Assembly (NCBI GenBank): GCA_035626705.1
Contig: DASPNE010000005.1
Span: forward strand, 45,929-109,928
Source: Usitatibacter sp.
GTDB taxonomy: Bacteria; Pseudomonadota; Gammaproteobacteria; Burkholderiales; Usitatibacteraceae
Reading direction: 5' to 3'
DNA length: 64,000 nt
The position numbers and the translations under genes are program-made. Positions 24,167 through 46,861 of this stretch are shown here, piece after piece. How positions within the stretch are numbered: the stretch's first letter is position 1; each line of letters starts with the position of its first letter. The notes beneath the pieces were generated by a model. The model was not told where the DNA came from and made no database searches. It worked only from the letters and a program-made list of their open reading frames with translations.

Positions 24167-24243
24167 GCGCCCGTAGCTCAGTTGGATAGAGTACCTGGCT
24201 ACGAACCAGGGGGTCGTGGGTTCAAATCCTGCCGGGCGCGCCA
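24167..24243 (+). tRNA. tRNA-Arg (anticodon ACG), CCA encoded; integration target of the island
   Basis: Manual fold: acceptor GCGCCCG/CGGGCGC, D-arm GCTC..GAGT, anticodon arm CCTGG-CTACGAA-CCAGG, T-arm GTGGG-TTCAAAT-CCTGC (two G-U pairs). TATAAT at 24150-24155. Confidence 0.92.
24199..24243 (+). repeat. attL core: 3' 45 nt of tRNA-Arg (anticodon loop to CCA)
   Basis: CTACGAACCAGGGGGTCGTGGGTTCAAATCCTGCCGGGCGCGCCA, identical to 37346-37390. Confidence 0.9.
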
Positions 24244-24325: not shown

Positions 24326-25441
24326 TCAAGCATTCGCCACCCGTAGAACGGTACACGTTCCCGGGCGCCTCAAGACGAGGTTCGCCTGCGAGATCAGTCG
24401 CCCGATATCGGCGCTCGCGTAGTGACCCGCCATCGAGCGGCTTGCGTGGCCGAGCAACACTTCCCGGTCCTCCCTAGAGACCCCTGCGGCGCGCAGCCGC
24501 GCTCCAAATGTGTGTCTCAGATCGTGAACTCGCACCCGCGAAAAATCTCGAGGCGCATCGAGTCCGAATTCGCCTTTCCAGGCGGCGGCTGCCACTTTGC
24601 GGGCATTCTTCCATGCGGTGTTGTTCATCTTCCCGACGGGCTTTCCTCGATACGGAAAGACCCAAACCTTGTCCTTGTCGCGCTGGGCCTGGACGATCGA
24701 CCAAGCGACGTCGTTTAGGACCGCGACATGCGCGCGCTTGGTCTTGTAAGCCTCCGCTGGAATCACGAATACGCTGCGGCCTACTTCCGGCACGAACACT
24801 TCCCAACTCCATCGGAGGGAGCAGACATTGCCCGCGCGTAAGCCCGTGTTGACAGCGAAGAGGGCCATCCGCGCCAGATGAGCCGGAAGTCGGGGGAACA
24901 AGCGGTCCTGTTCTTCCCATGTGATCGGGTAGGGTGGCCGACGGCTTTCGGGAAGGAGGGTTATTTGCGGTGGCACACAGTCGAGCCATGGCTTGCCTTC
25001 GTCATCGCGATAGACGCGCGCCGCCCGGTTGAGGATGGTCCGGACGACCTTCAATCCGTGGTTGATGGTTGTGGGGCTTACGCCTACGGACAGCCGGTCC
25101 GCTACGAACGCTCGGAGCGTACCGTCGTGGACCAGCCTGGGTTCGAGCGTCCCGACGTAGGAGAGTAGTTGCCGCACGTGCCTCGCACTGTCCGAGACTC
25201 TTCGCTTCCCACGGGAGTCGAAAAGGTATTGAGCTGCGCAATCCGAAAACCGTGGGCGTCTATTTGCCTTTTCGTAAAGCTCAGCCTCGACCCTAGCGAT
25301 CTCCTGATGCAGCCGGTCCTCCGCTTCTTGATCGCTAACGGCGCCGAGACGCGCAAAGATTCGAACACCTCGATGCTCCTTGTCGATGATCCGGTGACCG
25401 GCCGAGTTGAGAGTGATACCGGGGGTTCGTGTGGCGGTCAT
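24326..25441 (-). CDS. int: Tyrosine-type site-specific integrase
   Basis: 371 aa. The catalytic region has ...TGLRAGNVCSLRW..., HDLRHTFGARLRAAGVS, LLGHASRSMAGHYA (R..HxxR..H..Y). Sits adjacent to the tRNA att site. Confidence 0.93.
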   Translation of the reverse strand: MTATRTPGITLNSAGHRIIDKEHRGVRIFARLGAVSDQEAEDRLHQEIARVEAELYEKANRRPRFSDCAAQYLFDSRGKRRVSDSARHVRQLLSYVGTLEPRLVHDGTLRAFVADRLSVGVSPTTINHGLKVVRTILNRAARVYRDDEGKPWLDCVPPQITLLPESRRPPYPITWEEQDRLFPRLPAHLARMALFAVNTGLRAGNVCSLRWSWEVFVPEVGRSVFVIPAEAYKTKRAHVAVLNDVAWSIVQAQRDKDKVWVFPYRGKPVGKMNNTAWKNARKVAAAAWKGEFGLDAPRDFSRVRVHDLRHTFGARLRAAGVSREDREVLLGHASRSMAGHYASADIGRLISQANLVLRRPGTCTVLRVANA

Positions 25442-25505: not shown

Positions 25506-25844
25506 ATGGATAAGCCAATCGACTGGCGAGGTTCGTCACTCGATGATCTGCGCGAGTTTCCCGAAGAGGCTCGTAAGCAGGCGGGTCATGACCTTCGGAA
25601 GCTGCAGCGCGGCCAGGCTCCAGATGACTGGCGGTCGTTTCCCGAGGTCGGGCCTGGTGCGAACGAGATCCGCATCGATTGCGCGGATGGCTGGTTCAGG
25701 GTCATGTACGTGGCAAAGTTTGAAGAGGCCATTTACGTCCTTCACAGCTTTCAGAAGGCGACACGAAAGACGAGCAAGAAGGACGTTCAGATTGCAGAAA
25801 CCCGCTATCGCGCGGTTCTGCGTGAAAGGAAGGAGCGGAAATGA
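25506..25844 (+). CDS. RelE/ParE-superfamily toxin, phage Gp49/HigB-like
   Basis: 112 aa. WRGSSLDDLREFPEEARKQAGHDLRKLQRGQAPDDWRSFPEVGPGANEIRI..FRVMYVAKFEEAIYVLHSFQKATRKTSKKDVQIAETRY matches the Gp49-type toxin pattern. Overlaps the next gene by 4 nt. Confidence 0.85.
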   Translation: MDKPIDWRGSSLDDLREFPEEARKQAGHDLRKLQRGQAPDDWRSFPEVGPGANEIRIDCADGWFRVMYVAKFEEAIYVLHSFQKATRKTSKKDVQIAETRYRAVLRERKERK

Positions 25845-26173
25845 CGATTGATACGAAATCCCGTCATCGGACGAAGGCCGACGGGAATGTCTTTTTGGAT
25901 CTTGGATTTACGCCGAAAGAGGCGAAGCGCCTCCTTAAGGAGGCTGATGCCCAGATCGACGAGTCGATTCGCCTAAAGCAGCAGCTGATGGACGAAATCG
26001 CCGTGTGGATGAAGGAAACGAGCGTGACTCAGGCAGTGGCAGCTCGAGTGCTGCAGGTGACTCGTCCTCGAGTCTCCGACGTGGTCAATCATAAGGTCGA
26101 AAAGTTTACGATCGACGCACTGGTAGGAATGTTGTCGAAGATTGGCAAGCAGGTGCGCCTTGCTGTCCAGTGA
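25841..26173 (+). CDS. XRE-family HTH antitoxin (HigA-like)
   Basis: 110 aa. ETSVTQAVAARVLQVTRPRVSDVVNHKVEKFTIDALVGMLSKIG is an HTH followed by the typical C-terminus of this antitoxin class. ATGA overlap with the toxin gene. Confidence 0.85.
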   Translation: MTIDTKSRHRTKADGNVFLDLGFTPKEAKRLLKEADAQIDESIRLKQQLMDEIAVWMKETSVTQAVAARVLQVTRPRVSDVVNHKVEKFTIDALVGMLSKIGKQVRLAVQ

Positions 26174-27118: not shown

Positions 27119-27940
27119 CTAGAGAAAGCTATCGCTGCGAAGCTTGGCTACGTACGCCAAGAAATAGCGCTTGTAGACCGGAAACGTCCTGAGCGCCAGC
27201 ACGCCGGCGTCTCGTGTTCCAGCCTTTGAAAGGGCCTTCTGGAGATCCTCATCCACGAGTCGGTGCGATATCTCGTACCCGACAAACGTCTTCAACGGAA
27301 ACCAGAAGTCGCCAGCAGATTGGGGCCTGCCCGATCGCTTCGGAATTCCCATCCCAGACGTGATGATCCGCCGAGCAAAGGGACGCTCGACGAAAGACGT
27401 GCCTTTGATGATTCCATAGGGCGAGTTCCGATGGCGCTCCGTACGATGATGGCCGCTTCCCGGGAACATCCGCTCGACGGCTTCGCGTGGGTAGACGCCA
27501 ATCTCGACGGTATCCAAGAGCAGCGGCATTTGATGAAACGTCGCGCGACGTATGGCCTTTAGCGCTTCGGTTTGTGGCGTCCATCCAGAAAACAGCCGGG
27601 CCGCCCACGGCTTTCCCGTGTTCCGCTTGTATTCGACCCGCATGACTTCGGTGAGCTGTTGGGTCTTACCAACGTACTCCTCGAACGAACGTCGATACTT
27701 GGCCGGCTGGCGTCTAGAACGAAGTAACTCGCGATAGGCGCGCTCCAGCTCGAGATAGACAATTTCCGAATCGTGGGGGTCACATCGGATTCGATCCAAC
27801 AGGCGCGCCATGGCCCATTGTCCATCACTCTTCGTAGAGTGGTCTAACGCGCTCGCCTTCGGCACGCCAGACAACACCGCCACCGGGTGCCGGTAGCTCA
27901 CCTGATGAGCTTGGAGCAGTATACGCTCAGTGGCAGCCAA
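27119..27940 (-). CDS. Hypothetical protein (island cargo)
   Basis: The ORF is open from TTG 27940. ATG 27811 (MARLLDRIRCDPHD..) is a more conventional start and would leave a 150-bp divergent promoter region. No family recognised. Confidence 0.5.
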   Translation of the reverse strand: MAATERILLQAHQVSYRHPVAVLSGVPKASALDHSTKSDGQWAMARLLDRIRCDPHDSEIVYLELERAYRELLRSRRQPAKYRRSFEEYVGKTQQLTEVMRVEYKRNTGKPWAARLFSGWTPQTEALKAIRRATFHQMPLLLDTVEIGVYPREAVERMFPGSGHHRTERHRNSPYGIIKGTSFVERPFARRIITSGMGIPKRSGRPQSAGDFWFPLKTFVGYEISHRLVDEDLQKALSKAGTRDAGVLALRTFPVYKRYFLAYVAKLRSDSFL

Positions 27941-27961
27941 CTGAGGAAAGGCGAGATCGAG

Positions 27962-28225
27962 ATGAAACGCAAGCGGCGGGATGAGGACTCCGAGATCGCG
28001 GAGATTCTTGGGCCATTTCGCCGAGCTGCGGCCACGGCGTCGCTCGGACTAGTGCTGGGCCTGGGATGGGTCGTCTGTGCCATCGTGGGGGCCGCGGAGG
28101 CAGGGGTGGCGGCGCCAGTCGTCCGGCTGTTCACCACGGTCTTTGGCTGGGGTGCGCTCGGACTGCTGAGCCTGAGTATTGTCCGGTTCAGCTGGGCATA
28201 TCTGAGACTGAGGTTTCCAGGTTAG
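27962..28225 (+). CDS. Small two-TM membrane protein (cassette gene A1)
   Basis: ATG 27962 after AGGAAAGG. MKRKRRDEDSEIAEILGPFRRAAATASLGLVLGLGWVVCAIVGA...FGWGALGLLSLSIVRFSW. The ORF is open from 27887. Confidence 0.55.
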   Translation: MKRKRRDEDSEIAEILGPFRRAAATASLGLVLGLGWVVCAIVGAAEAGVAAPVVRLFTTVFGWGALGLLSLSIVRFSWAYLRLRFPG

Positions 28226-28261
28226 TTCGGACGAGTTGCGCGGCGGAGGAGGGCGCAGGGC

Positions 28262-29074
28262 ATGGAATTGATCGTCGGCGTCTTTGTGATCGTCGTCTTG
28301 TGGCTTGGTGTGAAAGCGCTTGCCACTCTCGGGTCGGAGCCGAAGAGCGACGCCTCTAGAGGAGGGGCCAAGCGGGTCGAAGCCACGAGCAAGCAATCGG
28401 TCCTTGACTCAAATATCGGATGGTTGCGTGAGCGATGGGTAGAGGCTGAAACGGCGAAAGCGGCGGGCGCCTTGAGTTACTTCCCGAAATGGTTCTTTGA
28501 TCCGGCGACGGATAAGCAATTGACCCGGTTGCAGAGGATGGGTGTTCGCCTGTCGGGAGGGGAGCTTACGAAGGGCGCAGCCTCCGACATCATCGGCCTG
28601 TTTGAGGATCCGGAGAGCTCCGATATGGATGTTCTAAAGTTCTTCAAGATGAAGTTGTCGCCGGAGCAGAAGAACGAGACGCGAGTCCGTCACGAGATCA
28701 GCAAGCTCTTCCAAGACCCGGAGAAGCTCACTGCATGGCGCGGCCGCCCTGCAGATGGGATGCAGAAGGAGTTCTATCGGTTCTTTTCACTCAAGATCCC
28801 GTCTGGGCTGACATACGAAGAAGCAGAGACGACGATTCGAGAAGCAGACATACCGGACGCCGAATTTGATGCTTGGCGGGATTTCGAGAATGTGTGTGAC
28901 GAGCTTGCGGATAGAAGCACGCTCGAGGACTACGGTCTACGCAAGCCCTCCTTGCCGGTCATCCGCGCTGCCTACGATGACCTACGAAAGACGGCACCTA
29001 AGGACGCCAACGACCCAATGTCGGTTGCAGAAAAGATACTGCAATTGAAGCCAGAGCTCGCGCGGGAGAGGTAG
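28262..29074 (+). CDS. N-terminally membrane-anchored hypothetical protein (cassette gene A2)
   Basis: 270 aa. GGAGGG lies 8 nt upstream. TM helix MELIVGVFVIVVLWLGVKALATL, then a soluble region with loosely repeated ~35-aa segments (..DKQLTRLQRMGVRLSGGELTKGAASDII.. and ..QKEFYRFFSLKIPSGLTYEEAETTI..). Confidence 0.65.
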   Translation: MELIVGVFVIVVLWLGVKALATLGSEPKSDASRGGAKRVEATSKQSVLDSNIGWLRERWVEAETAKAAGALSYFPKWFFDPATDKQLTRLQRMGVRLSGGELTKGAASDIIGLFEDPESSDMDVLKFFKMKLSPEQKNETRVRHEISKLFQDPEKLTAWRGRPADGMQKEFYRFFSLKIPSGLTYEEAETTIREADIPDAEFDAWRDFENVCDELADRSTLEDYGLRKPSLPVIRAAYDDLRKTAPKDANDPMSVAEKILQLKPELARER

Positions 29075-29076
29075 GG

Positions 29077-29730
29077 ATGCCCAACTGGCTGCTAAAGACG
29101 ATGGATCACCCTCTGTGGCGTGGTCTAGAGGGGGTCCACACGCTCGTCTGGGTCTATAGCACCTTAACCACCGGCGCCGTAGCTCGCGTTGGGTACCTGC
29201 AGGGGATGCCCACGATATGGATCGTCGTTGGAGCAATCGTTCTCTTTGTTCTGCTCATATCGATCGGATACGCAATCTACCTATACACGGGCTTCTACTC
29301 TCTGCATGAGGCATCGATCAAGGCTTACAACGAGCTGCGGCATTTGGGTCTCGGCGCACTCTCCAAGGGCTACTCGAACGTAGCTGGAAGTGACGCAGAC
29401 GGCGATGGTGTTTTGGACGAAGTGGGAACGCACTTGAGCCAAGTGGTGACGATCTACGGACGAGACCCTCCCGCGACAGTTCTTGACCCTCTGCCACTGT
29501 GGCTTTTCCCCCAAGGAAACATTTCCCAAGGCGCAAGAGAGTTTCGCCGATACGGTGAGACGACGGCGTTTTACAAGGACCTGGCGATTCGTCGAAGCGA
29601 TTTGCGCGTTGCCATCAAAGCCATTCGAGGGTACTTCGAGCACGAGGAGGCCGTACGCGAGGGGCGGGCTAAGGCGAAGGCAGCAGAGGCCGTAGCAGCC
29701 GGAGAATCGGATCCGGATGCGGCTTCATAG
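29077..29730 (+). CDS. Membrane protein, unknown function (cassette gene A3)
   Basis: 217 aa. Starts 2 nt after the A2 stop. Central TM helix TIWIVVGAIVLFVLLISIGYAIYLY and an acidic/Ala-rich tail. Confidence 0.65.
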   Translation: MPNWLLKTMDHPLWRGLEGVHTLVWVYSTLTTGAVARVGYLQGMPTIWIVVGAIVLFVLLISIGYAIYLYTGFYSLHEASIKAYNELRHLGLGALSKGYSNVAGSDADGDGVLDEVGTHLSQVVTIYGRDPPATVLDPLPLWLFPQGNISQGAREFRRYGETTAFYKDLAIRRSDLRVAIKAIRGYFEHEEAVREGRAKAKAAEAVAAGESDPDAAS

Positions 29731-29776
29731 CCCGCCGGCAACAGAAAATTCTAGGTGAGGTAGTGCGGGCGCCCTG

Positions 29777-30427
29777 ATGGCTTCTCGAAACGTCAAGCAG
29801 CGTCTTCTCGAAGATATGCGAGACGGGCTCCGACAATCGGTTGAGTACTTCAGCTCGAGCAACAAAGGCGAGCGAGAGCGCTGGTGTTGCCAGGAGTTTG
29901 TGCGGAACCTCAATGTTCGGCCCTGGAGTAGATCCTTTGTTTCACCCGATGAGGATCCGCCCGACGTCATCTATCGCGATGCGCGGTTCGAGGTAAAGGA
30001 GGTACTTGATGCTGGAAGGCGGCGTCACCACGAGTACCGTCAAGCGCTAGAAGAGGCGCTGGGCGCCAAGGACCCGGCGGAATTGATGAAAGAGTACAGT
30101 CCCAAAGACATCACGCCCCTCCAAGTCGGCGAACTCGTGCAGTCGCAAGTTCACAAATTGCGGCGGAAGTACGACCCCAAGCTCCAGCGGTCGCTAGACT
30201 TGCTGGTGTATGTAAACCTCTTGGAGACCTTGCTGGGCAGGGGTGCAATGCCCAATCCCGCGGCGTTTGAGAATTCCGGGTGGCGCTCAGTCTCAGCGCT
30301 CTTCGGGTGGAATTCGCTAGTCTTTTATGCGGAGCGGTCTGCTCCGAAGCTGATTCGGGATTCGGCAGGGGCAGTCGTGCTAAGAGCAAGAAAGCTGGTT
30401 GAGAGCCAGCCCAATCGAAAAAAGTAG
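29777..30427 (+). CDS. PD-(D/E)xK nuclease-like protein (cassette gene A4)
   Basis: 216 aa. ..ERERWCCQEFVRNL...DEDPPDVIYRDARFEVKEVLDAGRRRH.. gives helix-E, PD (D63) and ExK (E71, K73) in canonical order. It resembles what I recall of the DUF1780 putative endonuclease family (unverified). Confidence 0.6.
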   Translation: MASRNVKQRLLEDMRDGLRQSVEYFSSSNKGERERWCCQEFVRNLNVRPWSRSFVSPDEDPPDVIYRDARFEVKEVLDAGRRRHHEYRQALEEALGAKDPAELMKEYSPKDITPLQVGELVQSQVHKLRRKYDPKLQRSLDLLVYVNLLETLLGRGAMPNPAAFENSGWRSVSALFGWNSLVFYAERSAPKLIRDSAGAVVLRARKLVESQPNRKK

Positions 30428-30435
30428 GAACGGAG

Positions 30436-31026
30436 ATGCTGCCCGAGTTTTCAGAGACTAAGAGGATGTTTGCCCGGTTCTTCCAGACATACGCCCGGCG
30501 GCGTGCGCGGGCGGTGTCTCCGCTTGCTGAAGTTCAAGTTCGTTTTCTGCACGAGGGCAGAGGCATGAGGGTTGCGCGCGCTGATCAATCTCAATCGAGC
30601 AGTGCCGTCCAGCTCCTCTCCAGCACGATGGAAATCAAGTTCGATGAAATACCTGAACTGACCCTCCAGAAGACGATGGCCAAGTTCGACGAGATGATTC
30701 TGGATATGGTGCGCCAGCAGACGGGGTTCGCCTTGGAGCGGATCGGCGAGGAGATTCCAGACAGTCAGAGTGTCGATGCCAAGGGCAAGACGCTCGACGC
30801 CGAGCTCATGCTTCAGGTTCTAGAGACGCTTCAGATGGAGTTCCACTCCGATGGTCAACCCCACCAACTCCATGTCTTCGGGGGGCTCTTCACTGCCGAG
30901 CGGCAAAAGGCAATAGACGAGCAGTTTCAGAACGATCCCGACTTGCAGATACGGCTTGATGAGGTGATCGCAAAGAAGAGAGAAGAATGGCGTGCTAGAG
31001 AGGCTTGTCGAAAACTGGTTGGATAG
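30436..31026 (+). CDS. Hypothetical protein (cassette gene A5)
   Basis: 196 aa. AGGAACGGAG precedes the ATG, 8 nt after the A4 stop. No motif recognised. Confidence 0.6.
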   Translation: MLPEFSETKRMFARFFQTYARRRARAVSPLAEVQVRFLHEGRGMRVARADQSQSSSAVQLLSSTMEIKFDEIPELTLQKTMAKFDEMILDMVRQQTGFALERIGEEIPDSQSVDAKGKTLDAELMLQVLETLQMEFHSDGQPHQLHVFGGLFTAERQKAIDEQFQNDPDLQIRLDEVIAKKREEWRAREACRKLVG

Positions 31027-32617
31027 CGCCAGCGAGCGGAGCTATCAACGCTGCTTCTGCCAGATGCTGACCGGGCAGGGGTTTCACATCGTGCACAGCA
31101 CTGAGCACACGCCGCTTGAGTTCGGCAAGGATGTTATTGCGGTTTCTCCTGATGGCAAGCTCGTTGGCTATCAACTCAAGGGGCATCCTGACGGAACGCT
31201 TAAACCGCGGGACTTCGATAGCATTCGGGGCCAGCTGGAACAGCTTGCGACGCTGGCCGTAGCGATCGCGGGCTTTGAGGGAAGGGTTCCAGAAGAGTGC
31301 TACCTGGTTACCAACGGCGATATCGATGAGGCCGTCTATCACCAAATTCAGCTTCTCAACGCGAGCCTCGTTCAGCGCGGCCATCCTCCAGGAAAGATAA
31401 GAACAATTACGCGCGGGCAGCTGTTGGACTGGGCGCAGTCGCTTGGGCTGTCCCTATGGCCTTCCGAGATGCAGGACTTCGGAAATCTCGTAAAGCTGCT
31501 CAATTGCAGCGGAGATGAGATGTTCCCAGTCCAGATTTTTGATCCTCTTCTGCGCAATACGCTGAACTTCGAGGGCGAGCTCAAGAGCGCGGAATTGAGT
31601 CGCCGGGTGACGAGTGCGGGCGTAATGACTGCCGTAGCGCTTCATTCGTTCTCGCGTCAGAGGAACCATGTCGCGGAGATCACTGCGTGGACCATGTTTG
31701 CTACCTACTCGATTGCCGCTTGCGAGAAGAATGGCATCGACTATTCGAAGCATTGCAGTGAGGCCGTGCTTTCGGCACGAGATAGCATCTACGATCTCCT
31801 TGGACTGCTCTGCGAGGAAGCATCTGAGCGGAGAGTCATGTTCGAGGGTGATCCGTACAGTGAATTTGCTTTCTATCGGCCGCGGTTGCTTCTGATCTCC
31901 GCCCTCATGGCGGTCTACTGGATTTGGTCACAGGGAAGCACATGGACGCGGCCTCACCACAAGGCCCTCGTCGAGAAGCTCATTCCCCAAGCTCTCCCTC
32001 CTAGGTGGCTTTGGGGTGAAGGGGCGATCCCGAGTTTCTTGACTTACATTTGGTTTCGCAAAATGGTCGCGCCATCAGATGGCAACGACATGATCGTCGC
32101 GAAAGTTCTGGCGGCCCTGCTGCGCAACAAGTTAGGTGATGACGGAGAGCCGCTGGCATCCCCGTATTACGACGCGGAGGAGGTGGCGCAGCATCAATAC
32201 CGCGAGCTTCTTGGTTGTCCCGACCCATTCGAAGGTGACAGCTTCGAAGGTCATAGCTACTCATGCGAAAGCCTGTTGATGTGTCTCGTTCGGTCAGACT
32301 TGAAGATGGTTTGCCAGGAGCTCTGGCCGGATTTCACAAAGATCGGGCATGAGCGCGTTGTGCCGGATCAGGCCTGGCAGTTCGGCCTCTACCGTACGGG
32401 GGATGCAGCGACGAATGAGACGAAGATGTATCCGCCGATGATGCGATGGAGCGAGCTTCAGGAAATCTGTCAGGAATCCATGGCGATAGACGTTCCCGCA
32501 GCGTTGAAGGCCGACCCTGGTCTACTGCTGCTCTTTGTCAACCTCTTCCCGTTTCGCGCCACTTTCTCCGCAGTGAGGTTTTTGCACCGAGAGTTTGACG
32601 AAAAGACCGCTGTCTGA
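30992..32617 (+). CDS. Large hypothetical protein with Mrr-like N-terminal nuclease motif (cassette gene A6)
   Basis: 541 aa from GTG 30992, overlapping A5 by 35 nt (start uncertain). The N-terminus ..SERSYQRCFCQMLTGQGFHIVHSTEHTPLEFGKDVIAVSPDGKLVGYQLKG.. gives E..D47..Q61-x-K63, as in Mrr-type restriction folds. The remaining ~430 aa are helix-rich and unassigned. Confidence 0.6.
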   Translation: MLERLVENWLDSASERSYQRCFCQMLTGQGFHIVHSTEHTPLEFGKDVIAVSPDGKLVGYQLKGHPDGTLKPRDFDSIRGQLEQLATLAVAIAGFEGRVPEECYLVTNGDIDEAVYHQIQLLNASLVQRGHPPGKIRTITRGQLLDWAQSLGLSLWPSEMQDFGNLVKLLNCSGDEMFPVQIFDPLLRNTLNFEGELKSAELSRRVTSAGVMTAVALHSFSRQRNHVAEITAWTMFATYSIAACEKNGIDYSKHCSEAVLSARDSIYDLLGLLCEEASERRVMFEGDPYSEFAFYRPRLLLISALMAVYWIWSQGSTWTRPHHKALVEKLIPQALPPRWLWGEGAIPSFLTYIWFRKMVAPSDGNDMIVAKVLAALLRNKLGDDGEPLASPYYDAEEVAQHQYRELLGCPDPFEGDSFEGHSYSCESLLMCLVRSDLKMVCQELWPDFTKIGHERVVPDQAWQFGLYRTGDAATNETKMYPPMMRWSELQEICQESMAIDVPAALKADPGLLLLFVNLFPFRATFSAVRFLHREFDEKTAV

Positions 32618-32690
32618 CGGTGGGTACGATGCCGGTATGTTCGCGATCTCGGCCAAAGTCGTCGCGCGAAATTGAAGGAGATGGATAAGG

Positions 32691-33671
32691 CTAAGGCTGG
32701 GCCGTCGCGAATGCTTGTTCGATCTCCGCTAGCAGCTCTTTCCTCGTCGTCGCGGGAATCTCTGCATCAGGAATGTAAGTATCGAAGCTCGAGGTGCGCA
32801 CGCTGATCGAGTCGTCCAGCAAAGCGGGGAGATCCTCGACCCCTTCCAGTCTGTGGAACTGAATCTTGTGCGGCTGGGCACCGTTAGCGATCCGGATGAA
32901 GGCGACGATGTTGCGGATCGAGACGTCAATGAGCTGCAGCCCGCGGATCATCGGCTCGGGTTCCCAGTTCACAGTGTGCCGGCGCGATCGCTTGCTGCGC
33001 GTGCCTGGCACGTCGGGCCCGGCTCTCTCGATCGCGTAGAAGGTAGAGCCCGTGTCTGAGCCGCCGAGGTACTTCATCTCCTCAGGGGGCGGCGCAACTC
33101 CGAACTGGTGCTCCAAGCCGAATGCGATCTTGACCCCCGAGGATCGGATGCGAAACCCGTGTTTGAGGCTGTTGTACTCGGCCTGGCTCATCTCGTTGAG
33201 GAACTCGCCGGCGAAGATGCTCCAAAGCCGCCCGAACGACTCGGCCGTCTTCGGCCAGCCGTTCTCCTGCGTGCAATGCGCGAACACCCGCTGGGCCAGG
33301 CCCGCCCAGGTCCGATTCCACTGGGTGATCTCGCTGTGGAGCGTGGGATCGCCCTTCGAAATGCGCTCGATCACCCCGCGCAGCAGATCAGTCTTGGCGA
33401 GTGCGACCCATGCGTAGGGCGCCTGCGGCGCCTGCACCGCAGCGGCAGCGAGGGTCATCAGCGTCTCGATGCCGTGCAGGTAGGCCATGCGCGTAGCGGT
33501 GGCCACACGGCGCTTATGCTCGGCCGAGTCGAGCTTCTCTGCGTGCGCCTCGGCAAGGTAGCTGAAGAAGGCGGGATCGATCGAGTCCAGGAACTCTGTG
33601 GTCCTCGTCGCGGGATCAGGATCCCAGAGGCTGTACGGCTCGTCGTTGACGATGAACGAGAAATGATTCAT
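32691..33671 (-). CDS. Hypothetical protein (island operon B, distal gene)
   Basis: 326 aa, ATG 33671. No family recognised; no TM helix or signal peptide. Confidence 0.6.
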   Translation of the reverse strand: MNHFSFIVNDEPYSLWDPDPATRTTEFLDSIDPAFFSYLAEAHAEKLDSAEHKRRVATATRMAYLHGIETLMTLAAAAVQAPQAPYAWVALAKTDLLRGVIERISKGDPTLHSEITQWNRTWAGLAQRVFAHCTQENGWPKTAESFGRLWSIFAGEFLNEMSQAEYNSLKHGFRIRSSGVKIAFGLEHQFGVAPPPEEMKYLGGSDTGSTFYAIERAGPDVPGTRSKRSRRHTVNWEPEPMIRGLQLIDVSIRNIVAFIRIANGAQPHKIQFHRLEGVEDLPALLDDSISVRTSSFDTYIPDAEIPATTRKELLAEIEQAFATAQP

Positions 33672-33857
33672 TGCAAGCTCGATTTACCAGCTAGTTCGCC
33701 ATTCTCGCACCGACAAGCTCAGGTTCTTGGATCGTGTTCGCGGCTGTCATCGATTGCGACCAGGCGCAGATGGGCATGCCATCTCTCCCGGCCGCAAAGT
33801 AAGGCGAGTGAGGGGTGGGTATCTTGCGGAGCCCTCATGCAGCGCTATGCGCCCGAT

Positions 33858-35939
33858 CTAACCCCAGTCGACATCGGGATAGGCCGGATTCAATGACTTG
33901 ATCTCAGCGTGGATCTGCTGAAGGGCCGACTTTGTGTACTCGCGGGCCGTCATATCGACATTTCTAAATTCACCAAAGAGCATTCGAAGATCTGTTACGT
34001 GACAACCAAGGAAGGCAATGGTCTTGAGGGTTTTGGCGACCCGGATCAATCGCTTCGGATCCCGGTGCAAGAGGGGATACACGTGTTCGCCTCCGCTAAC
34101 CCAATGCGTTCCGTTGTTTTCCGCGGCATTGGCAAGCTTGTCAGCCAATCGATCGATCATCAGCTCGAAGAGGATGATGGTCGCATCAGGCGCCTTGCGG
34201 GAGGTTTGCTCATAGAGGAGTCCGAACATCGACGCGGCGCCATCGTCATATCGCGATTCCCAGAAGAGGGGCAAGTATTCCTCAATCTCCGCAAAGTGAA
34301 TGGCGTCCTGCTCCAGAACCTTCCAAAAGTGCCACGCCAGGGAAGATCGAATCGAATTCGAGCCGCGTCGAATTTGCTGTTGTAACAGGTTCTCGAAGGG
34401 GGTTGGATCGAAATCTCCTAAGTCCTCGTAATGATGCTTGCGGAAGAAGGCGAAGTACATGAGGAGGGCGGCGAGCTCGCGATCAAGGTAGTCGGCATTA
34501 GCATCGAGTAGTACAGAGAGAACCTCGAAGGCTTCTTGGGCCGTCAAGTCCCGGTAGTTGCCAAATACCTGGGCAAGGGCTCGCAAAACGCGGGGGAACT
34601 CGCGATTCGCTTGCAGCGCCTCAAACGCGAGCCGCCCAACCCGCTGCTGCTCTGCAGGTGCCCAGTCGAATGCTGAGCCATCGGAGTTTTTGGTGCACCT
34701 ACGCCTTTGCACGAAGCACTGCAGAACGTGTATTGCCTGTATGCGGATGTACAGATTCGGTTCGCGTAAGTATCGCTCGATGATATCGACGATCTCGCCA
34801 TAGAGATCAGGGCGGTTGAGTTCGACGATTCTCATCATGAGCCAGCAAAGATGCCCGCGAACCGTGGTGATGAGGCCAACATCCTCCCCCCGAAGGGTCT
34901 GTAGGTGGTAGTTGAATCGTCCCTCGGAATCGCTGGGGTCGTTTTCGCCAGAAGGATCGGGATCGGGGTCGTTACACAGGGCTCGCAGAATCCAGACTCC
35001 ATCCTCAATTGCGCCGTCCTTGACGAACTGCTGCGCGATACGAGCGAGGTTCTCACGCGCGTGTCTGTCTGCGAGCCAGTCCGTGCCGCCAACCGCGACT
35101 GTCCTGCGCTTCACGTACTCGAAAGCCCGCCTGTCGTTGTCTCCGAGCTGGCAACTCAGGGTCTCGACCAACAGAGGCGATACGTCGCCGTCGACGGACA
35201 CACTACGTATGGCGTCGTAGATCGTCCGTTCGAAGATCTTGCGGAAATGCCCTTGACCCGAGGTGAAGTAGACGAGATCGATATTCTCGAGTTTGCCGAA
35301 GTCGAGTTGCGTTAGAGCATGAATCGCATCGTTGCCTTCAACGAAGAATGCCCAGTTCTGTACAAGGATGATTCTCTCGTGCCCGCTCGTCGCCAGCTGG
35401 AGGTTCTTGGTTGGCAGGAGATCCAAGAAGGCTCGAAGCGAAGTCCCCTTTGAATCAACCCAACGCGCTTCAGCGGTGCCGCTGAAAGTGACGGTCTTCA
35501 GGCTGGGGATTCGACGATATTGAAAGCCGTCGGCCTCAAAATCGTCAGAGGTCGGGTTCGACGCGATGGTCGCCTCGAGACGATCAGCCAAGTCGATTGA
35601 GAAGGTACGAAGGTCTGCCTTCTTGAGCGTGAAGTACGGCGTGGAGATCAGGAAGCCCTCAATGCCTCGCCGAGTGAGCTCGTCTTTGAGAACTCCGACC
35701 ACCTCGCTCCACACTTTCTCTTTGGCAAGAGCCTTTCCGTCCTCCACAAGCCTGAAAATCTCGACGGCGACCTTTCTCCCTCCGGCATCCTCGAGTTGGT
35801 AGTCGAAGTCCTTCTTCGACGAAGGGTTGGGGCGGACGTCGCGACCGGTGATGGCGTACGAGGTTTGACGCACATCGCCGAGATGGCGCATGAATCTCTC
35901 TATCGCTTCCTCTTCCCACTGTTCTTTCGACGCAGTCAT
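33858..35939 (-). CDS. Large hypothetical protein, helical-repeat C-terminal region (island operon B, proximal gene)
   Basis: 693 aa, ATG 35939. The N-terminal ~230 aa are mixed alpha/beta (..KKDFDYQLEDAGGRKVAVEIFRL..). The C-terminal ~400 aa look like HEAT/ARM-style helical repeats. No NTPase motif seen. Confidence 0.65.
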   Translation of the reverse strand: MTASKEQWEEEAIERFMRHLGDVRQTSYAITGRDVRPNPSSKKDFDYQLEDAGGRKVAVEIFRLVEDGKALAKEKVWSEVVGVLKDELTRRGIEGFLISTPYFTLKKADLRTFSIDLADRLEATIASNPTSDDFEADGFQYRRIPSLKTVTFSGTAEARWVDSKGTSLRAFLDLLPTKNLQLATSGHERIILVQNWAFFVEGNDAIHALTQLDFGKLENIDLVYFTSGQGHFRKIFERTIYDAIRSVSVDGDVSPLLVETLSCQLGDNDRRAFEYVKRRTVAVGGTDWLADRHARENLARIAQQFVKDGAIEDGVWILRALCNDPDPDPSGENDPSDSEGRFNYHLQTLRGEDVGLITTVRGHLCWLMMRIVELNRPDLYGEIVDIIERYLREPNLYIRIQAIHVLQCFVQRRRCTKNSDGSAFDWAPAEQQRVGRLAFEALQANREFPRVLRALAQVFGNYRDLTAQEAFEVLSVLLDANADYLDRELAALLMYFAFFRKHHYEDLGDFDPTPFENLLQQQIRRGSNSIRSSLAWHFWKVLEQDAIHFAEIEEYLPLFWESRYDDGAASMFGLLYEQTSRKAPDATIILFELMIDRLADKLANAAENNGTHWVSGGEHVYPLLHRDPKRLIRVAKTLKTIAFLGCHVTDLRMLFGEFRNVDMTAREYTKSALQQIHAEIKSLNPAYPDVDWG

Positions 35940-36265
35940 GTCGCGAAGCTGGGTGCTCTGTCGGTCATGTGGTGCGGTCCTTATTCTGCCGGCCTAGTCG
36001 CGCCAGTTACACCTTCGCTAGCACCGCCATAGTGTGACTTTGCGAGTTACGGGTTTCGCCGTTGATTCCCTTGCCAGCTTGCTTGAAACTTGACCGCCCG
36101 TTTTGCGGCGGGTTCGCGCTGCAGCACGTTCCGCGTATACCCATATCTCCTGTGGTCCGCTCCTGCTAGTTGCGTGGACTCAATTAGAGCGAAAATGAGC
36201 GGGTTCCTGAACAGCTGCCCTAGCGCTTGCTCACGGACAGTCGACTATGAAGAGGCGGCATTGCC

Positions 36266-37087
36266 ATGACTCTCCTTGTGTGTTGGGCTGGCATTGACCC
36301 TCATGGGACATCCTCCCTTTATATTGCAAGTGACAGCCGACTTTCCTGGGACAAGTCGACCGTCTTCGACTCGGGTCGCAAGGTCTTTGCATTTTCTGGA
36401 TGGCCTGACATTCTTGGCTATTGCGGGGACGTTCTCTTCCCGTCGCTGGCACTCAATCAGATCGTCAACTTGGCGGACGCCGGTCTCCTGTTTGCCCCGA
36501 ATTTCTCTCCGAAGCAGAAGTTTCAAGCGATTGTCGACAAGCTTAACGACCTCGTCGCGGACTACCCAGCCGCGCGCGCGGGTTTGGCGGTGAACAAGCT
36601 GACGATCGTTCATGGATCGCGCGATCCTCATGCAAAGGGCGTCTTCTTCTGCCATTCGATCTCTTGGGCGAATGGAAAATGGGGAGGGGAGGAGAAGCAG
36701 ATGCCCGCTGCGTCGGATGTCCTATTTGTGGAGGGGACCGGCGCACGCGCTTTCAATGAAAACCTTGTTCGGTATCGAGATGGACCAAACAGGAGGACCA
36801 GTCGTGCGGTTTTTCATTGCTTCTGTGATGCCCTCGCACATCCGGTGGATTACACGGTGGGAGGACCTCCCCAACTCGTTGGATTAATTCGGAATCCAGA
36901 CTCTGCCGCGCTCACGTTTGGAGTCGTTTATGAGGGAAAGCGGACATTTTTGGGGGCTCATGTCGACAACCTGAGAAGCTTTGATAAAGTGCAGTGGCGG
37001 AACGCCAACTTTGAGCTCTGCGACGGCCGCACTTTGAAGAAGCTTCCAAATGCACAACCACAGCCTGACCCCTTGCGCAGGTTGTGA
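36266..37087 (+). CDS. Hypothetical protein; candidate N-terminal-nucleophile (proteasome/HslV-like) hydrolase
   Basis: 273 aa. MTLLVCWAGIDPHGTSSLYIASDSRLSWDKSTVFDSGRKVFAF has Thr directly after Met, a beta-strand, A-x-D-S-R, and a Lys 16 residues after the Asp. This is the same D-to-K spacing as proteasome beta D17/K33. Confidence 0.6.
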   Translation: MTLLVCWAGIDPHGTSSLYIASDSRLSWDKSTVFDSGRKVFAFSGWPDILGYCGDVLFPSLALNQIVNLADAGLLFAPNFSPKQKFQAIVDKLNDLVADYPAARAGLAVNKLTIVHGSRDPHAKGVFFCHSISWANGKWGGEEKQMPAASDVLFVEGTGARAFNENLVRYRDGPNRRTSRAVFHCFCDALAHPVDYTVGGPPQLVGLIRNPDSAALTFGVVYEGKRTFLGAHVDNLRSFDKVQWRNANFELCDGRTLKKLPNAQPQPDPLRRL

Positions 37088-37155: not shown

Positions 37156-37345
37156 TTCCCTACTCAGGGTTAGCGAGCGCTCTAGGCAGCGGAAGTTGCC
37201 CGCGGATGGTGAGGGCTCGGGACGGATTGGCTAGCAAGACTTCTGCAAGGCCTTGTGGAACACTGTCGATCGCTGTAGAGCAGAACTGATGCAACGGGCA
37301 GCTCTGCGAGGGTTGTGAATCAATGACTTACCCTTGGTTCAAACC

Positions 37346-37390
37346 CTACGAACCAGGGGGTCGTGGGTTCAAATCCTGCCGGGCGCGCCA
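37346..37390 (+). repeat. attR core: duplicate of the 3' 45 nt of tRNA-Arg
   Basis: Identical to 24199-24243. The preceding sequence (..GGTTCAAACC) does not continue the tRNA, so this is a remnant and not a second tRNA gene. Confidence 0.9.
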
Positions 37391-37397
37391 GAATTGC

Positions 37398-37433
37398 AAG
37401 GGCTTGGTTTCGAAAACCAAGCCCTTTTTTGTT
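37398..37433 (+). terminator. Intrinsic terminator (the presumed original tRNA-Arg terminator)
   Basis: AAGGGCTTGGTTT-CGA-AAACCAAGCCCTT (13-bp stem) followed by TTTTGTT. Confidence 0.85.
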
Positions 37434-37554
37434 CGCGCCGGGCGTGCGAGCACGGTCATGCCGGTGGATAGGAGTGCAAGGAGGTGTGGGACCGCCACCT
37501 CATGCGCTCGCGCGTTTAGGCTAGACTCGCCCTTCTTCCCACCGGAGGCCACCC

Positions 37555-37821
37555 ATGGACGTGAGCACCGACAAGCTGGTACAGGACTTGCGCACCGTCG
37601 TCGCCGATGCCGAGGAGCTCCTCAAGGCCACGGCCGAGAACACCGGCGAATCCGTCATGCGCGCGCGGGCGCGGGCCGAAGAGTCGTTGCGCTCCGCGCG
37701 CGTCACGCTGCAGAACGCTGGCGTGCGCATCGAGGACGAGGTCCGAAAGCATCCGTGGCAATCCCTGGGTGTCGCCGCGTGCGCGGGGCTCATCCTCGGC
37801 GTGCTGATCGCGCGCAAGTAG
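37555..37821 (+). CDS. yqjD: YqjD/ElaB-family (DUF883) membrane-anchored stress protein
   Basis: 88 aa. DKLVQDLRTVVADAEELLKATAENTGE...VRKHPWQSLGVAACAGLILGVLIARK is the typical DUF883 layout with a C-terminal TM helix. Confidence 0.88.
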   Translation: MDVSTDKLVQDLRTVVADAEELLKATAENTGESVMRARARAEESLRSARVTLQNAGVRIEDEVRKHPWQSLGVAACAGLILGVLIARK

Positions 37822-37827
37822 CCTGCC

Positions 37828-38187
37828 ATGCGGTTGCTGCAATCGGCGCAGGCCCTCCTTGCCGATGCGTTGGCCCTCGGCCGCACGCGGCTCGAGCTCT
37901 TCAGCACGGAGATGCAGCTCGAGCTGGCGCGACTCTTCTTCGCGCTCCTCGCCGGCATGGCGGTCCTGCTGCTGGTGGTGGGTGCCGTGGCTTTCGCCGG
38001 CATTTCGCTCATCGTCTCGCTGGCGCCCGAGAACCGCGCGTTCGCCGCCGGCCTGATCGCGCTCGGCTTTTTCGTCCTGGCCGCCGCGGGGGCGTACTTC
38101 GTCCGCAAGCTCGCGAAAGCGCGGGCCCGGCCGTTCGATGCGAGCCTCAAGGAGCTCGAGCGCGACCTGCACGCGCTCAAGCCATGA
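37828..38187 (+). CDS. yqjE: YqjE-like (DUF1469, phage-holin-family) membrane protein
   Basis: 119 aa with two TM helices. LGRTRLELFSTEMQLELARL is the family's N-terminal motif. Conserved position after yqjD. Confidence 0.8.
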   Translation: MRLLQSAQALLADALALGRTRLELFSTEMQLELARLFFALLAGMAVLLLVVGAVAFAGISLIVSLAPENRAFAAGLIALGFFVLAAAGAYFVRKLAKARARPFDASLKELERDLHALKP

Positions 38188-38444
38188 TGGGAAAACTGCG
38201 CAACCTGGAGCAGCGCCGCGACATCCTGGTCCGGCGTTCCATCGCGCAGCGGGCGCTCGTTTCGCTACGCGTCCAGCCTGCGGCGAAAGGCCTCGGCGCG
38301 GTGGATCGCGCCATCGCCTTTGCGCGCGCGCATCCCGTTTTGACAGGCGCAGCCGCGGCAGGCCTTGTCCTCATCGGTCCCCGCTTCATCGCGCGCTGGC
38401 TACTTCGCGCGGCGCCGCTCTATTCGCTGATCCGTCGCCTGTAG
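38184..38444 (+). CDS. yqjK: YqjK-like protein
   Basis: 86 aa. ATGA overlap with the yqjE stop. MMGKLRNLEQRRDILVRRSIAQRALV... completes the yqjD-E-K order known from E. coli. Confidence 0.7.
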   Translation: MMGKLRNLEQRRDILVRRSIAQRALVSLRVQPAAKGLGAVDRAIAFARAHPVLTGAAAAGLVLIGPRFIARWLLRAAPLYSLIRRL

Positions 38445-45270: not shown

Positions 45271-45948
45271 CTACCTGGCGACGGGCTGCTCTGCCAACCG
45301 CGCCCGCAAACGCTCGTTCTCGCGATTGAGCCGATCGTTGGCGCGTGTGAGCTCCTCGCGCGCTTCCAGGGACTGGGCCAGGGTTGCGCGCACGAGATAG
45401 GCAGCGGCGGCGAAGTTAGCCAAGCGTTGCATGACCCGCAGGTGCTCGGCGGCGAATTTCACGGACGGGTCGTGGGAGACCACCCAAACGGTGCCGACGG
45501 TCTCGCCGAGCACATCGAACGGCACGAGCAGCGCCTCCTCGGCGAGGGGCTCGGCCTTGTTCATCTCGGGGAAGTAGAGCTCGGGGTTGGCCATCAGCTG
45601 CGGCGCATGGCGGTCGACGACGACGCCGCACGGGCTCGCCTTGCGCGGCATGAACCCCATCAGGTATCCCGACCACCGCCCGGCGACGGCGTGCCAGCGA
45701 AAGATCGAGGCGCCATTGTCGAGCTCGATGAGGCTGATGCCGGCGCTCTGCGCGCCGCACAGGGACAGGGCCGCATCGGCCAGGCGCTGCAGCACCTCAC
45801 GCTCGCCGCGAGCGAGGGCCTCGGCGAGCGAATCCAGGGTGCGATCCTCGAGCCCGCGGTCGATCGCGCCAAGGGGGCGAGTCGCGAGCACCCTCTGGGC
45901 GCACGCGTCTTCCGGCCAGGCCTGGGGGCTCGAGCTCATGGCCCGCAT
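45271..45948 (-). CDS. GAF-domain protein with C-terminal coiled coil
   Basis: 225 aa. ..LQRLADAALSLCGAQSAGISLIE...FRWHAVAGRW...SPCGVVVDR...LLVPF..GETVGTVWVVSHD.. is the GAF pattern. Starts 1 nt after the PhyH stop. Confidence 0.75.
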   Translation of the reverse strand: MRAMSSSPQAWPEDACAQRVLATRPLGAIDRGLEDRTLDSLAEALARGEREVLQRLADAALSLCGAQSAGISLIELDNGASIFRWHAVAGRWSGYLMGFMPRKASPCGVVVDRHAPQLMANPELYFPEMNKAEPLAEEALLVPFDVLGETVGTVWVVSHDPSVKFAAEHLRVMQRLANFAAAAYLVRATLAQSLEAREELTRANDRLNRENERLRARLAEQPVAR

Positions 45949-45949
45949 T

Positions 45950-46861
45950 CTACATCTTCATCCCGGCCATCTCGCGGGTGTCCTTCTGCTGCAGGTCGAA
46001 GATCGAGGTGTAGCCCCCCGACCAGTCCGGCGGCATGAGGCAGGGGCGCGGATCGTGGTGGGCGAACTGGGCGCGCTTTCCGCGGATGATCGCCTGGTCC
46101 TTCGACGAGCGGATGGGGTTCACGGTGTAGGGGAAGGCGTCCGCCGAGGAAAGCGTGTATAGCAGCAACGGGCGGCCAAGGTCGGAGCTGTTCTTAGGCG
46201 AGCCGTGGATCGTGCGGCAGTTGTGCAGCGTGAGCGAGCCCGCGGGCCCGGTGAGGTACACCGCCTTCTTCACGTCGATCTTCGCCACGTCCTCGGGCGA
46301 GAGGCACCCCACCCATTTCCCGGTGTCGTCGTACTGCGTGAACATCGTGTCGCCCAGGTGGCTGCCCGGGATGATACCGACCGGGCCCATCTCCATCGTC
46401 GTGTCGTAGATGTAGGTCCCGACCGTGAGCGGCGAATAGTTGGTGTGCGGCCAGAAGGAGATGTCGTAATGCCACTTCACCTCCTCGCCGCCCTTGGCCC
46501 ACTTGAAGTTGAGCTTCGAGTGATGGAACTTCACGTCCGGACCGACGAGGTCGGCCACCACATCCCCCACGATCGACTTCGAGACGTAGTCCCAGTACAC
46601 GGGGTGCTGGTCGACCGGCGCGGAAACCCGGCGCAGGCGCGGCGCATCGGGTGAGTGGTCGGGTTCGAGGTCCCACACCGCATCGGACTTCGTGACCTTG
46701 CGGCTCCTCTCGACCAGCTCGTCGGTGGCATCGCGCAACTTCTTCAGCCAGTCGTCGCCGATGATGCGCTCGAGGAGGATGTAGCCCTCGGTGAAGTAGG
46801 ACTCGCGCTGCGATTGCGTGAGCACGCGCGGGGGAATGGCCAGGATCTGCTCGGGGGTCAT
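45950..46861 (-). CDS. Phytanoyl-CoA dioxygenase (PhyH) family Fe(II)/2-oxoglutarate oxygenase
   Basis: Start at MTPEQILAIPPRV (ATG 46861). FTEGYILLERII, KWHYDISFW (HxD) and LTLHNCRTIHGS (distal His). Confidence 0.85.
   Translation of the reverse strand: MTPEQILAIPPRVLTQSQRESYFTEGYILLERIIGDDWLKKLRDATDELVERSRKVTKSDAVWDLEPDHSPDAPRLRRVSAPVDQHPVYWDYVSKSIVGDVVADLVGPDVKFHHSKLNFKWAKGGEEVKWHYDISFWPHTNYSPLTVGTYIYDTTMEMGPVGIIPGSHLGDTMFTQYDDTGKWVGCLSPEDVAKIDVKKAVYLTGPAGSLTLHNCRTIHGSPKNSSDLGRPLLLYTLSSADAFPYTVNPIRSSKDQAIIRGKRAQFAHHDPRPCLMPPDWSGGYTSIFDLQQKDTREMAGMKM

Follow-up and report, generated by a model that had tools for sequence, protein, structure and literature searches.

Olokun, whose architecture is the closest among described systems, is presented in a preprint as an adaptin-like protein, OloA, and a PD-(D/E)XK nuclease, OloB, which form a 2:2 complex (bioRxiv 10.1101/2025.07.10.664194). 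AbiJ-NTD4 was described as an alpha+beta N-terminal domain whose fusion partner is either HEAT repeats or a HEPN domain (Anantharaman et al., 2013, PMC3710099), and XisH was placed in the PD-(D/E)XK superfamily (PMC3424549). In this study, we analysed a 64,000-nt stretch of Usitatibacter sp. DNA (contig DASPNE010000005.1; hereafter the window), in which a 13.1-kb integrative island at a tRNA-Arg gene carries two adjacent minus-strand genes, coding for proteins of 693 and 326 amino acids (aa). Our results favour, at a probability of about 0.5, two independent candidate defence genes that are neighbours by chance on this small island. Each gene would be separate cargo, coming from its own uncharacterised family of defence islands and mobile elements. 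The 693-aa protein and its relatives are called family A here, and the 326-aa protein and its relatives family B. The two genes and their spacer are as follows:

33858..35939, minus strand: gene of the 693-aa protein (P0001, family A) in the list of open reading frames (ORFs), ATG start; a nuclease-like N-terminal domain fused to a HEAT/ARM solenoid is predicted
32691..33671, minus strand: gene of the 326-aa protein (P0002, family B) in the ORF list, ATG start
33672..33857, minus strand: spacer of 186 bp between the two genes, holding a near-palindrome at 33767-33784

An earlier note on this DNA had described two minus-strand ORFs convergent with a cassette, and the coordinates and ATG starts of both were confirmed; the cassette lies on the plus strand and ends at 32617. 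To judge from sequence comparison, both ORFs are real genes and not chance ORFs, because both have many relatives, those of the 693-aa protein being aligned end to end. The 693-aa protein has 51 non-self relatives, with 31-51% identity over 74-100% of its length, and one 390-aa fragment relative with 57% identity; its nearest relatives are P0004 (51%) and P0005 (49%). The residues K5, Q7, W8, E9 and E10 are kept in the relatives, and the 693-aa start is thus favoured over the 677-aa form found in the database. The 326-aa protein has 71 non-self relatives, the best with 87% identity, and the family B profile matched 1117 cluster representatives (E<=0.001) in a library of 1.84 billion proteins clustered at 50% identity. 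DNA contigs from two other soil metagenome runs (X2 and X3) had the same arrangement with no differences, and one contig of run X3 covered 33404-34541 (gene, spacer and gene) with 0 differences. The two runs and the source of the window may represent one population.

The evidence for independence comes from the distribution of the two families. Family A was followed in 14 loci (one genome per species) and family B in 80 loci from metagenomes (the best of 257), of which 25 had at least 2.3 kb upstream of the family B gene. Tblastn with all members found family B in 0/14 family A loci and family A in 0/80 family B loci, and unfiltered profile hidden Markov models revealed no weaker copies of either family in the loci of the other. 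The families thus do not recur as neighbours in the way that a conserved two-gene system does. The earlier note had proposed an operon of a scaffold and a small partner, had named in advance a lack of conserved neighbourhood as grounds for refutation, and had asked whether the pair travels with the cassette. The proposal is not supported, and its refuting condition holds: the pair was conserved as neighbours at none of the 94 loci, family A has a different usual partner (described below), and the cassette genes (27887-32617) were absent from all 94 loci. When 400 further genomes from the order were searched, family A turned up in 0/400 and family B in 1/400 (G278), and G278 has no family A gene. 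This only other family B member in the 400 genomes (L098; G278:C7:1391-2341) contains one in-frame TGA. Furthermore, the nearest relatives differ in distance (51% identity for the 693-aa protein vs 87% for the 326-aa protein), and the genes differ in composition. The 693-aa gene has a GC content of 0.559 and a third-position GC (GC3) of 0.674, like the rest of the island, whereas the 326-aa gene has values of 0.628 and 0.823, with all other island genes at a GC3 of 0.59-0.73. On the evidence of the zero co-occurrence, the unequal identity to the nearest relatives and the unequal composition, the two genes have different histories. A search for repeats around the 326-aa gene that might mark a separate insertion gave only short, chance-like matches.

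The spacer does hold the near-palindrome CAGATGGGCATGCCATCT at 33767-33784, as had been reported. As a regulatory site it was rejected: sites of this class, defined as 17-mers that become a perfect 16-nt palindrome after deletion of one base, occur 17 times in the 64-kb window vs a mean of 13.45 over 20 shuffles, which is chance level. The suggestion that the two genes are separately regulated therefore keeps its fit with the no-pairing results and loses the palindrome that was offered as its basis. A consensus scan gave neither a terminator-like nor a promoter-like site in the spacer (33672-33857). Downstream of the second gene the same scan gave one feature:

32606..32621, minus strand: terminator-like hairpin with a T-run, 70 bp past the stop of the 326-aa gene (consensus scan only)

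This hairpin is weak evidence of a terminator, because 3 such sites were found in the region vs 3.7 expected.

The AlphaFold2 model of the 693-aa protein (pLDDT 89, pTM 0.76, built on an alignment of 41 sequences) has two parts:

35220..35939, minus strand: residues 1-240, N-terminal alpha/beta domain with a PD-(D/E)XK-type-like fold and an inserted subdomain (predicted)
33861..35219, minus strand: residues 241-693, all-helical HEAT/ARM-like alpha-solenoid (predicted)

The earlier note had guessed an alpha/beta N-terminal part of about 230 aa reminiscent of nucleases, followed by about 400 aa of HEAT/ARM-like repeats, and the model bears out both, being alpha/beta to about residue 240 and a helical solenoid thereafter. 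In the model, the N-terminal domain starts with the order helix, three strands, helix, strand. The stretch KKDFDYQLEDAGGRKVAVEIFRL corresponds to residues 42-64 of the translation, and within it D46 (strand 2) and E60 (strand 3) are invariant in 41/41 sequences and sit in a putative alpha-beta-beta-beta-alpha-beta core. In the same alignment, E9/E10 on helix 1 are nearly invariant, and K178, N179 and Q181 are invariant. We read residues 1-240 of the model as resembling a restriction endonuclease, with a site that departs from the canonical one and with putative activity. No nuclease-family profile in Pfam, NCBIfam, PHROG or PADLOC matched the domain, and a Pfam scan of the 41 family A members at E<=5 gave scattered chance matches, with no nuclease model among the first 25 of 40 families. 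Searches of the ESM Atlas returned unnamed clusters only, with DUF1780 scoring 0.82 for the N-terminal domain, which is below the threshold for a lead; hhalign of family A against the DUF1780 protein of the island gave a probability of 0.09.

The solenoid consists of stacked helical hairpins like those of solved HEAT/ARM proteins. Foldseek matched it to PP2A-A, AP-2 and importins (E 3e-4 to 3e-3), and structure comparison also matched it to IntS4, whereas the Pfam HEAT models matched neither the 693-aa protein nor the family A members. As it stands on a predicted structure, the match is one of fold class and assigns no family. Strong conservation marks an acidic loop and helix of the solenoid (W316, D324, P327, N333, D337, G340, N343, H345, V360-R361 and L364-C365-W366-L367).

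Like Olokun as presented in the preprint, family A joins a solenoid of the HEAT/adaptin type to a module, here a putative one, of the PD-(D/E)XK nuclease type. However, Olokun consists of two proteins, whereas family A is one polypeptide with the nuclease-like part N-terminal, thus uniting in one chain two modules that are kept apart in Olokun. Moreover, the usual partner of family A is a protein of about 357 aa with an R-x4-H-G motif and not an OloB-like nuclease, and the canonical Lys is absent. In PADLOC, P0001 had no OloA or OloB match at E<=0.1. OloA gave weak solenoid matches in 2/4 other family A members tested (E 6.6e-4 and 2.8e-3), and OloB gave none. Equally weak partial OloA matches occur in 6/301 genomes of the order, including the unpublished genome G205, and the OloA likeness is therefore treated as generic HEAT likeness. 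Family A does not belong to Olokun, and by analogy it may work like a fused Olokun. AbiJ-NTD4, as described in the cited account, follows the same logic of an alpha/beta domain with HEAT repeats and a HEPN-type gene nearby; as an identity for the 693-aa protein it was rejected, for the AbiJ_NTD4 model (PF18863) went unmatched across the entire genome (E<=1). Small PD-(D/E)XK proteins of the XisH/AF2093 type gave no sequence-profile match to the family A N-terminal domain, which is about 100 residues larger, fused to a solenoid, and has D...E-x-F instead of D...(D/E)-x-K.

The 326-aa protein was modelled with a pLDDT of 91.9 and a pTM of 0.88. The model shows an N-terminal beta-hairpin, long helices packed into a bundle, and an insertion of four beta strands that bears the basic loop SKRSRR (residues 226-231). 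The family signature is encoded as follows:

33150..33179, minus strand: codons of E165-Y-N-S-L-K-H171-G-F-R174 (38-sequence alignment)

In the 38 sequences E165, Y166, N167, K170, H171 and R174 are invariant. Among 113 diverse family B sequences only E69, H171 and R174 remain invariant, and conservation is 90% or higher at R61, E165, Y166, N167, K170 and G172. Foldseek found nothing for the model in PDB or BFVD. The best structural matches were HEPN proteins, and the HEPN-like fold, coming from the model, is a lead and not a result. At E<=5, Pfam HEPN models matched 0/38 family B members, the member-wise Pfam scan gave scattered chance matches, and the family B profile, run against PDB sequences, found only endoglycoceramidase (E 2). 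One family B relative had a CARF_HEPN match in PADLOC (E 0.0088), which lies outside the motif. Compared with HEPN toxins and Abi proteins (MNT-HEPN toxins, AbiV/AbiD/AbiJ, ApeA, Csm6 and LsoA), family B differs in its motif, E-Y-N-x-x-K-H-G-x-R with Tyr for Arg, and in having the four-strand insertion and the N-terminal hairpin.

The usual partner of family A is another protein, to which it would be translationally coupled. In three loci (L001:925-4102, L002:9944-13187 and L003:9914-13178) an ORF of about 360 aa (the 357-aa type mentioned above; family C) begins 1 nt past the stop of the family A gene or overlaps it by 17 nt, and across canonical pairs the spacing runs from a 17-nt overlap up to a 15-nt gap. 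Relatives of family C number 230. For at least 14 of the 50 family A clusters with known contig size, one of the listed family C clusters has exactly the same size (4460, 6844, 7056, 139945, 39234, 24682, 17051, 13673, 32419, 13548, 6422, 13899, 32163 and 4724), these 14 coincidences being a lower bound with 120 of the 230 relatives listed. In a quick tree of 41 rows (12 labelled), family A members partnered with family C fell on both sides of the midpoint root, and P0001 grouped with P0004 and P0005 (support 97). The pair is common in candidate-phyla-radiation bacteria, and the spread of family A with its partner reaches from these to Proteobacteria and Acidobacteriota. Family C has an almost invariant R258-S-x-F-V-H263-G and an invariant W-Q-R-E (alignment A3), with no match in Pfam or PADLOC and none in the present genome at E<=1. 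Families A and C together look like an undescribed two-gene system.

The same downstream slot holds unrelated proteins in two further loci, one of 328 aa with L-R-N-Q-L-A-H-S-G (L004) and one of 223 aa with I-R-N-Q-A-V-H-G-E (L009). The latter has a weak Abi_2 match (E 0.066), and nothing else was found for either in Pfam or PADLOC. Of the 521 ORFs of at least 150 aa across the fetched loci, 20 contain the pattern R-[NSHDQ]-x3-H-[GS], and 5 of these 20 are the partners just described. When the 13 family A loci with at least 1 kb downstream were considered, 5/13 had an R-x4-H-G gene in the slot and 8/13 had none. Hhalign gave probabilities of 0.1 for family B against family C and of at most 0.2 against the L004 and L009 partners.

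Genomic contexts were examined for 108 ORFs within 6 kb of family A genes and, for family B, for 104 immediate neighbours, 42 further ORFs and one plasmid. Family A genes stand near type I restriction-modification (RM) genes (abutting in L002, divergent in L009), large serine recombinases (L004, L005 and L009), a resolvase (L011), an integrase (L010), ParE (L014), BrnA with a TIR-kinase-AAA_35 protein (L007), and a LexA-like repressor with SocA (L001). In L003 a PLD-SNF2 helicase accompanies an Eco57I-type methylase gene that overlaps the start of family A. Around family B we found MmeI, Eco57I and Type ISP enzymes, Vsr with Dcm, a CAP12-type TIR, SMODS, ThsA-Macro and a TIR/SEFIR protein. Other family B neighbours were AbiV, Abi_alpha, AbiEii, a KAP NTPase, AAA_15/21, MazF, HipA, RES-Xre, integrases, IS66 and conjugation genes. 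No neighbour cluster recurs at family B loci. The earlier note's impression of a defence island is borne out by these contexts, in which relatives of both proteins stand beside RM, toxin-antitoxin, CBASS/Thoeris-like, Abi, TIR, SMODS, Cas1 and recombinase genes. Both families are sparse and patchy across phyla; neither was found in phages (pattern scan of IMG/VR, tblastn of INPHARED), and on plasmids family A had 0 copies and family B 1 copy. Both contexts are those of cargo in defence islands, with family B behaving like a module that stands alone. Both families recur among known immune genes and have no Pfam, NCBIfam, PHROG or PADLOC model.

Three single loci are worth recording. At L012:8402-12001, in Acidobacteriota, a 510-aa Cas1 homologue (PF01867, E 9e-40) is encoded 60 bp upstream of a distant family A member and reads in the same direction. 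At L059:1-3698, a type I S-subunit gene, an ORF of no named family, a SMODS gene and a family B gene follow one another on one strand, with the family B gene overlapping the end of the SMODS gene by 49 nt, and it could hold the effector position in a CBASS-like operon. The sole plasmid copy (L116) lies on Deinococcus radiophilus pRadio3 (45613-46617 in the record, 30% identity), where it follows the gene of an MmeI-type enzyme and an ORF of no named family, with a RES-Xre pair nearby.

Several observations weigh against two independent defence genes. The defence role of both would follow from guilt by association, and neither protein has anything significant in Pfam, NCBIfam, PHROG or PADLOC, as the earlier note had anticipated in finding no nameable motif in the 326-aa protein. 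In the N-terminal domain of the 693-aa protein, strands 2 and 3 do not carry a complete catalytic D...(D/E)-x-K: where the canonical Lys would stand, at least 90% of the 41 sequences have F62, and the domain may therefore lack activity or rely on a different Lys, K178 for example. Family B has no HEPN R-x4-6-H motif, H171 being preceded by Y166-N167 and not by R-N, so that Tyr stands at the expected Arg, and in the alternative R61-x4-H66 the residue H66 varies among H, N and Q. In addition, the 326-aa gene immediately follows the 693-aa gene on its strand, in the slot that R-x4-H-G proteins hold in 5/13 family A loci, and the context of family A consists of 14 loci, among which its nearest relatives P0004 and P0005 are not included. 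This placement is the starting point for supposing that the pair works together, the 326-aa protein having replaced family C as effector of the 693-aa protein in a modular sensor-plus-RNase system. The idea is possible and, in our view, doubtful. It gains from the three mutually unrelated R-[NS]-x3-H-[GS] proteins that fill the slot elsewhere (family C, L004 and L009), from the rarity of such motifs outside it, from the weak Abi_2 match of the L009 partner and from the HEPN proteins that head the structural matches of the 326-aa model. Family B also often closes varied defence operons, as behind SMODS in L059 and 67 bp past a ThsA-Macro gene in L080, and in L036, L019 and L052 it comes after MmeI, Eco57I or Type ISP enzymes; the unchanged arrangement in two other metagenome runs, maybe of one population, agrees with it as well. 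However, the two families never co-occur elsewhere, and the 186-bp gap is far from the spacing of canonical pairs. The genes are unlike in composition and in how far they have diverged from their nearest relatives, hhalign links family B to none of the slot proteins, the arginine of the motif is missing from family B, and adjacency inside a 13-gene island is weak evidence. A broader version, in which family A is the core of an undescribed modular defence system, with a fused Olokun-like protein and an exchangeable downstream RNase-type effector whose slot is here filled by the 326-aa protein, we consider unlikely. At least three unrelated R-x4-H-G proteins fill the slot in other genomes; if the broader version were true, family B would be a free-standing effector module that also joins SMODS-, ThsA-Macro- and RM-type operons.

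It is quite unlikely that neither gene is defensive and that both serve the island (maintenance or competitor exclusion) or a host process. The PADLOC models match neither protein, neither family turned up in phage records, and family A often stands beside recombinases and family B beside integrases and conjugation genes, all of which would suit such a role; but the neighbours are mostly classical defence genes that differ between loci, the usual picture for cargo of defence islands, and the distribution is sparse and patchy across phyla. We regard as very unlikely that the 693-aa gene is an orphan left after the loss of its partner, either non-functional or a non-catalytic scaffold, with only the 326-aa gene active. 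Although A-C pairing is widespread, family C has no match in this genome, the catalytic Lys is missing family-wide, and P0001 has the longest terminal branch in its three-member clade (0.71 vs 0.37 and 0.62). Yet the ORF is intact and retains every column that is invariant across the 41 sequences, and the loss of Lys is a trait of the family and not a decay of P0001. Family C is absent from 10 of the 13 family A loci with at least 1 kb downstream (2 of the 10 have another R-x4-H-G partner), and a family A gene standing without family C is therefore common.

Under the favoured reading of two independent genes, the solenoid of the 693-aa protein would bind a ligand of phage or cellular origin, either a protein or a nucleic acid, and control the nuclease-like domain. 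As family C was not found in this genome, the 693-aa protein would work alone or with something else. The 326-aa protein would be a stand-alone module with a HEPN-like helical core, in which E69, H171 and R174 lie beside the basic loop; we infer an abortive-infection-type nuclease, probably an RNase, acting on its own. Being large and having a sharply conserved set of E, H and R, family B offers a testable single-gene candidate. For annotation, the adjacency of the 693-aa and 326-aa genes on the island is not to be read as an operon.

The island itself is delimited by the following features:

24167..24243, plus strand: tRNA-Arg(ACG), the integration target (ARAGORN)
24199-24243: left copy of a 45-nt direct repeat, the last 45 nt of the tRNA-Arg gene (repeat search)
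37346..37390, plus strand: right copy of the 45-nt direct repeat, 100% identical to 24199-24243, the right end of the island
24326..25441, minus strand: tyrosine integrase of the island (PF00589, E 2.5e-17)

The GC content is 0.57-0.60 between the repeats vs 0.65-0.70 in the flanks, rising from 0.595 to 0.685 past the right repeat. With a tRNA target, a repeat of its 3' end, an adjacent integrase and deviant composition, the element is a tRNA-integrated genomic island. It resembles other integrative islands at tRNA genes in its tRNA-Arg target, 45-nt repeat, integrase, low GC and toxin-antitoxin pair, and nothing about it is unusual in this respect. In an empty-site comparison with three same-genus genomes, the right flank was not conserved.

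At 37323-38444, a 373-aa ORF spans the right attachment repeat, with codon-position GC values of 0.786/0.663/0.572; this reverses the host pattern, so that the stretch is probably no gene in that frame. Upstream of the 693-aa gene, at 36245-37087, two ORFs overlap (136 aa on the minus strand and 273 aa on the plus strand); they had no family match, and codon-position GC favours neither. The plus-strand cassette at 27887-32617 has six ORFs, and its sole named domain is DUF1780, a putative endonuclease (29777-30427, E 1e-26). At 25506-26173, adjoining the island integrase, a Gp49/HigB-like toxin gene (PF05973, E 1.5e-25) overlaps an HTH_37 antitoxin-like gene (PF13744), forming a toxin-antitoxin pair.

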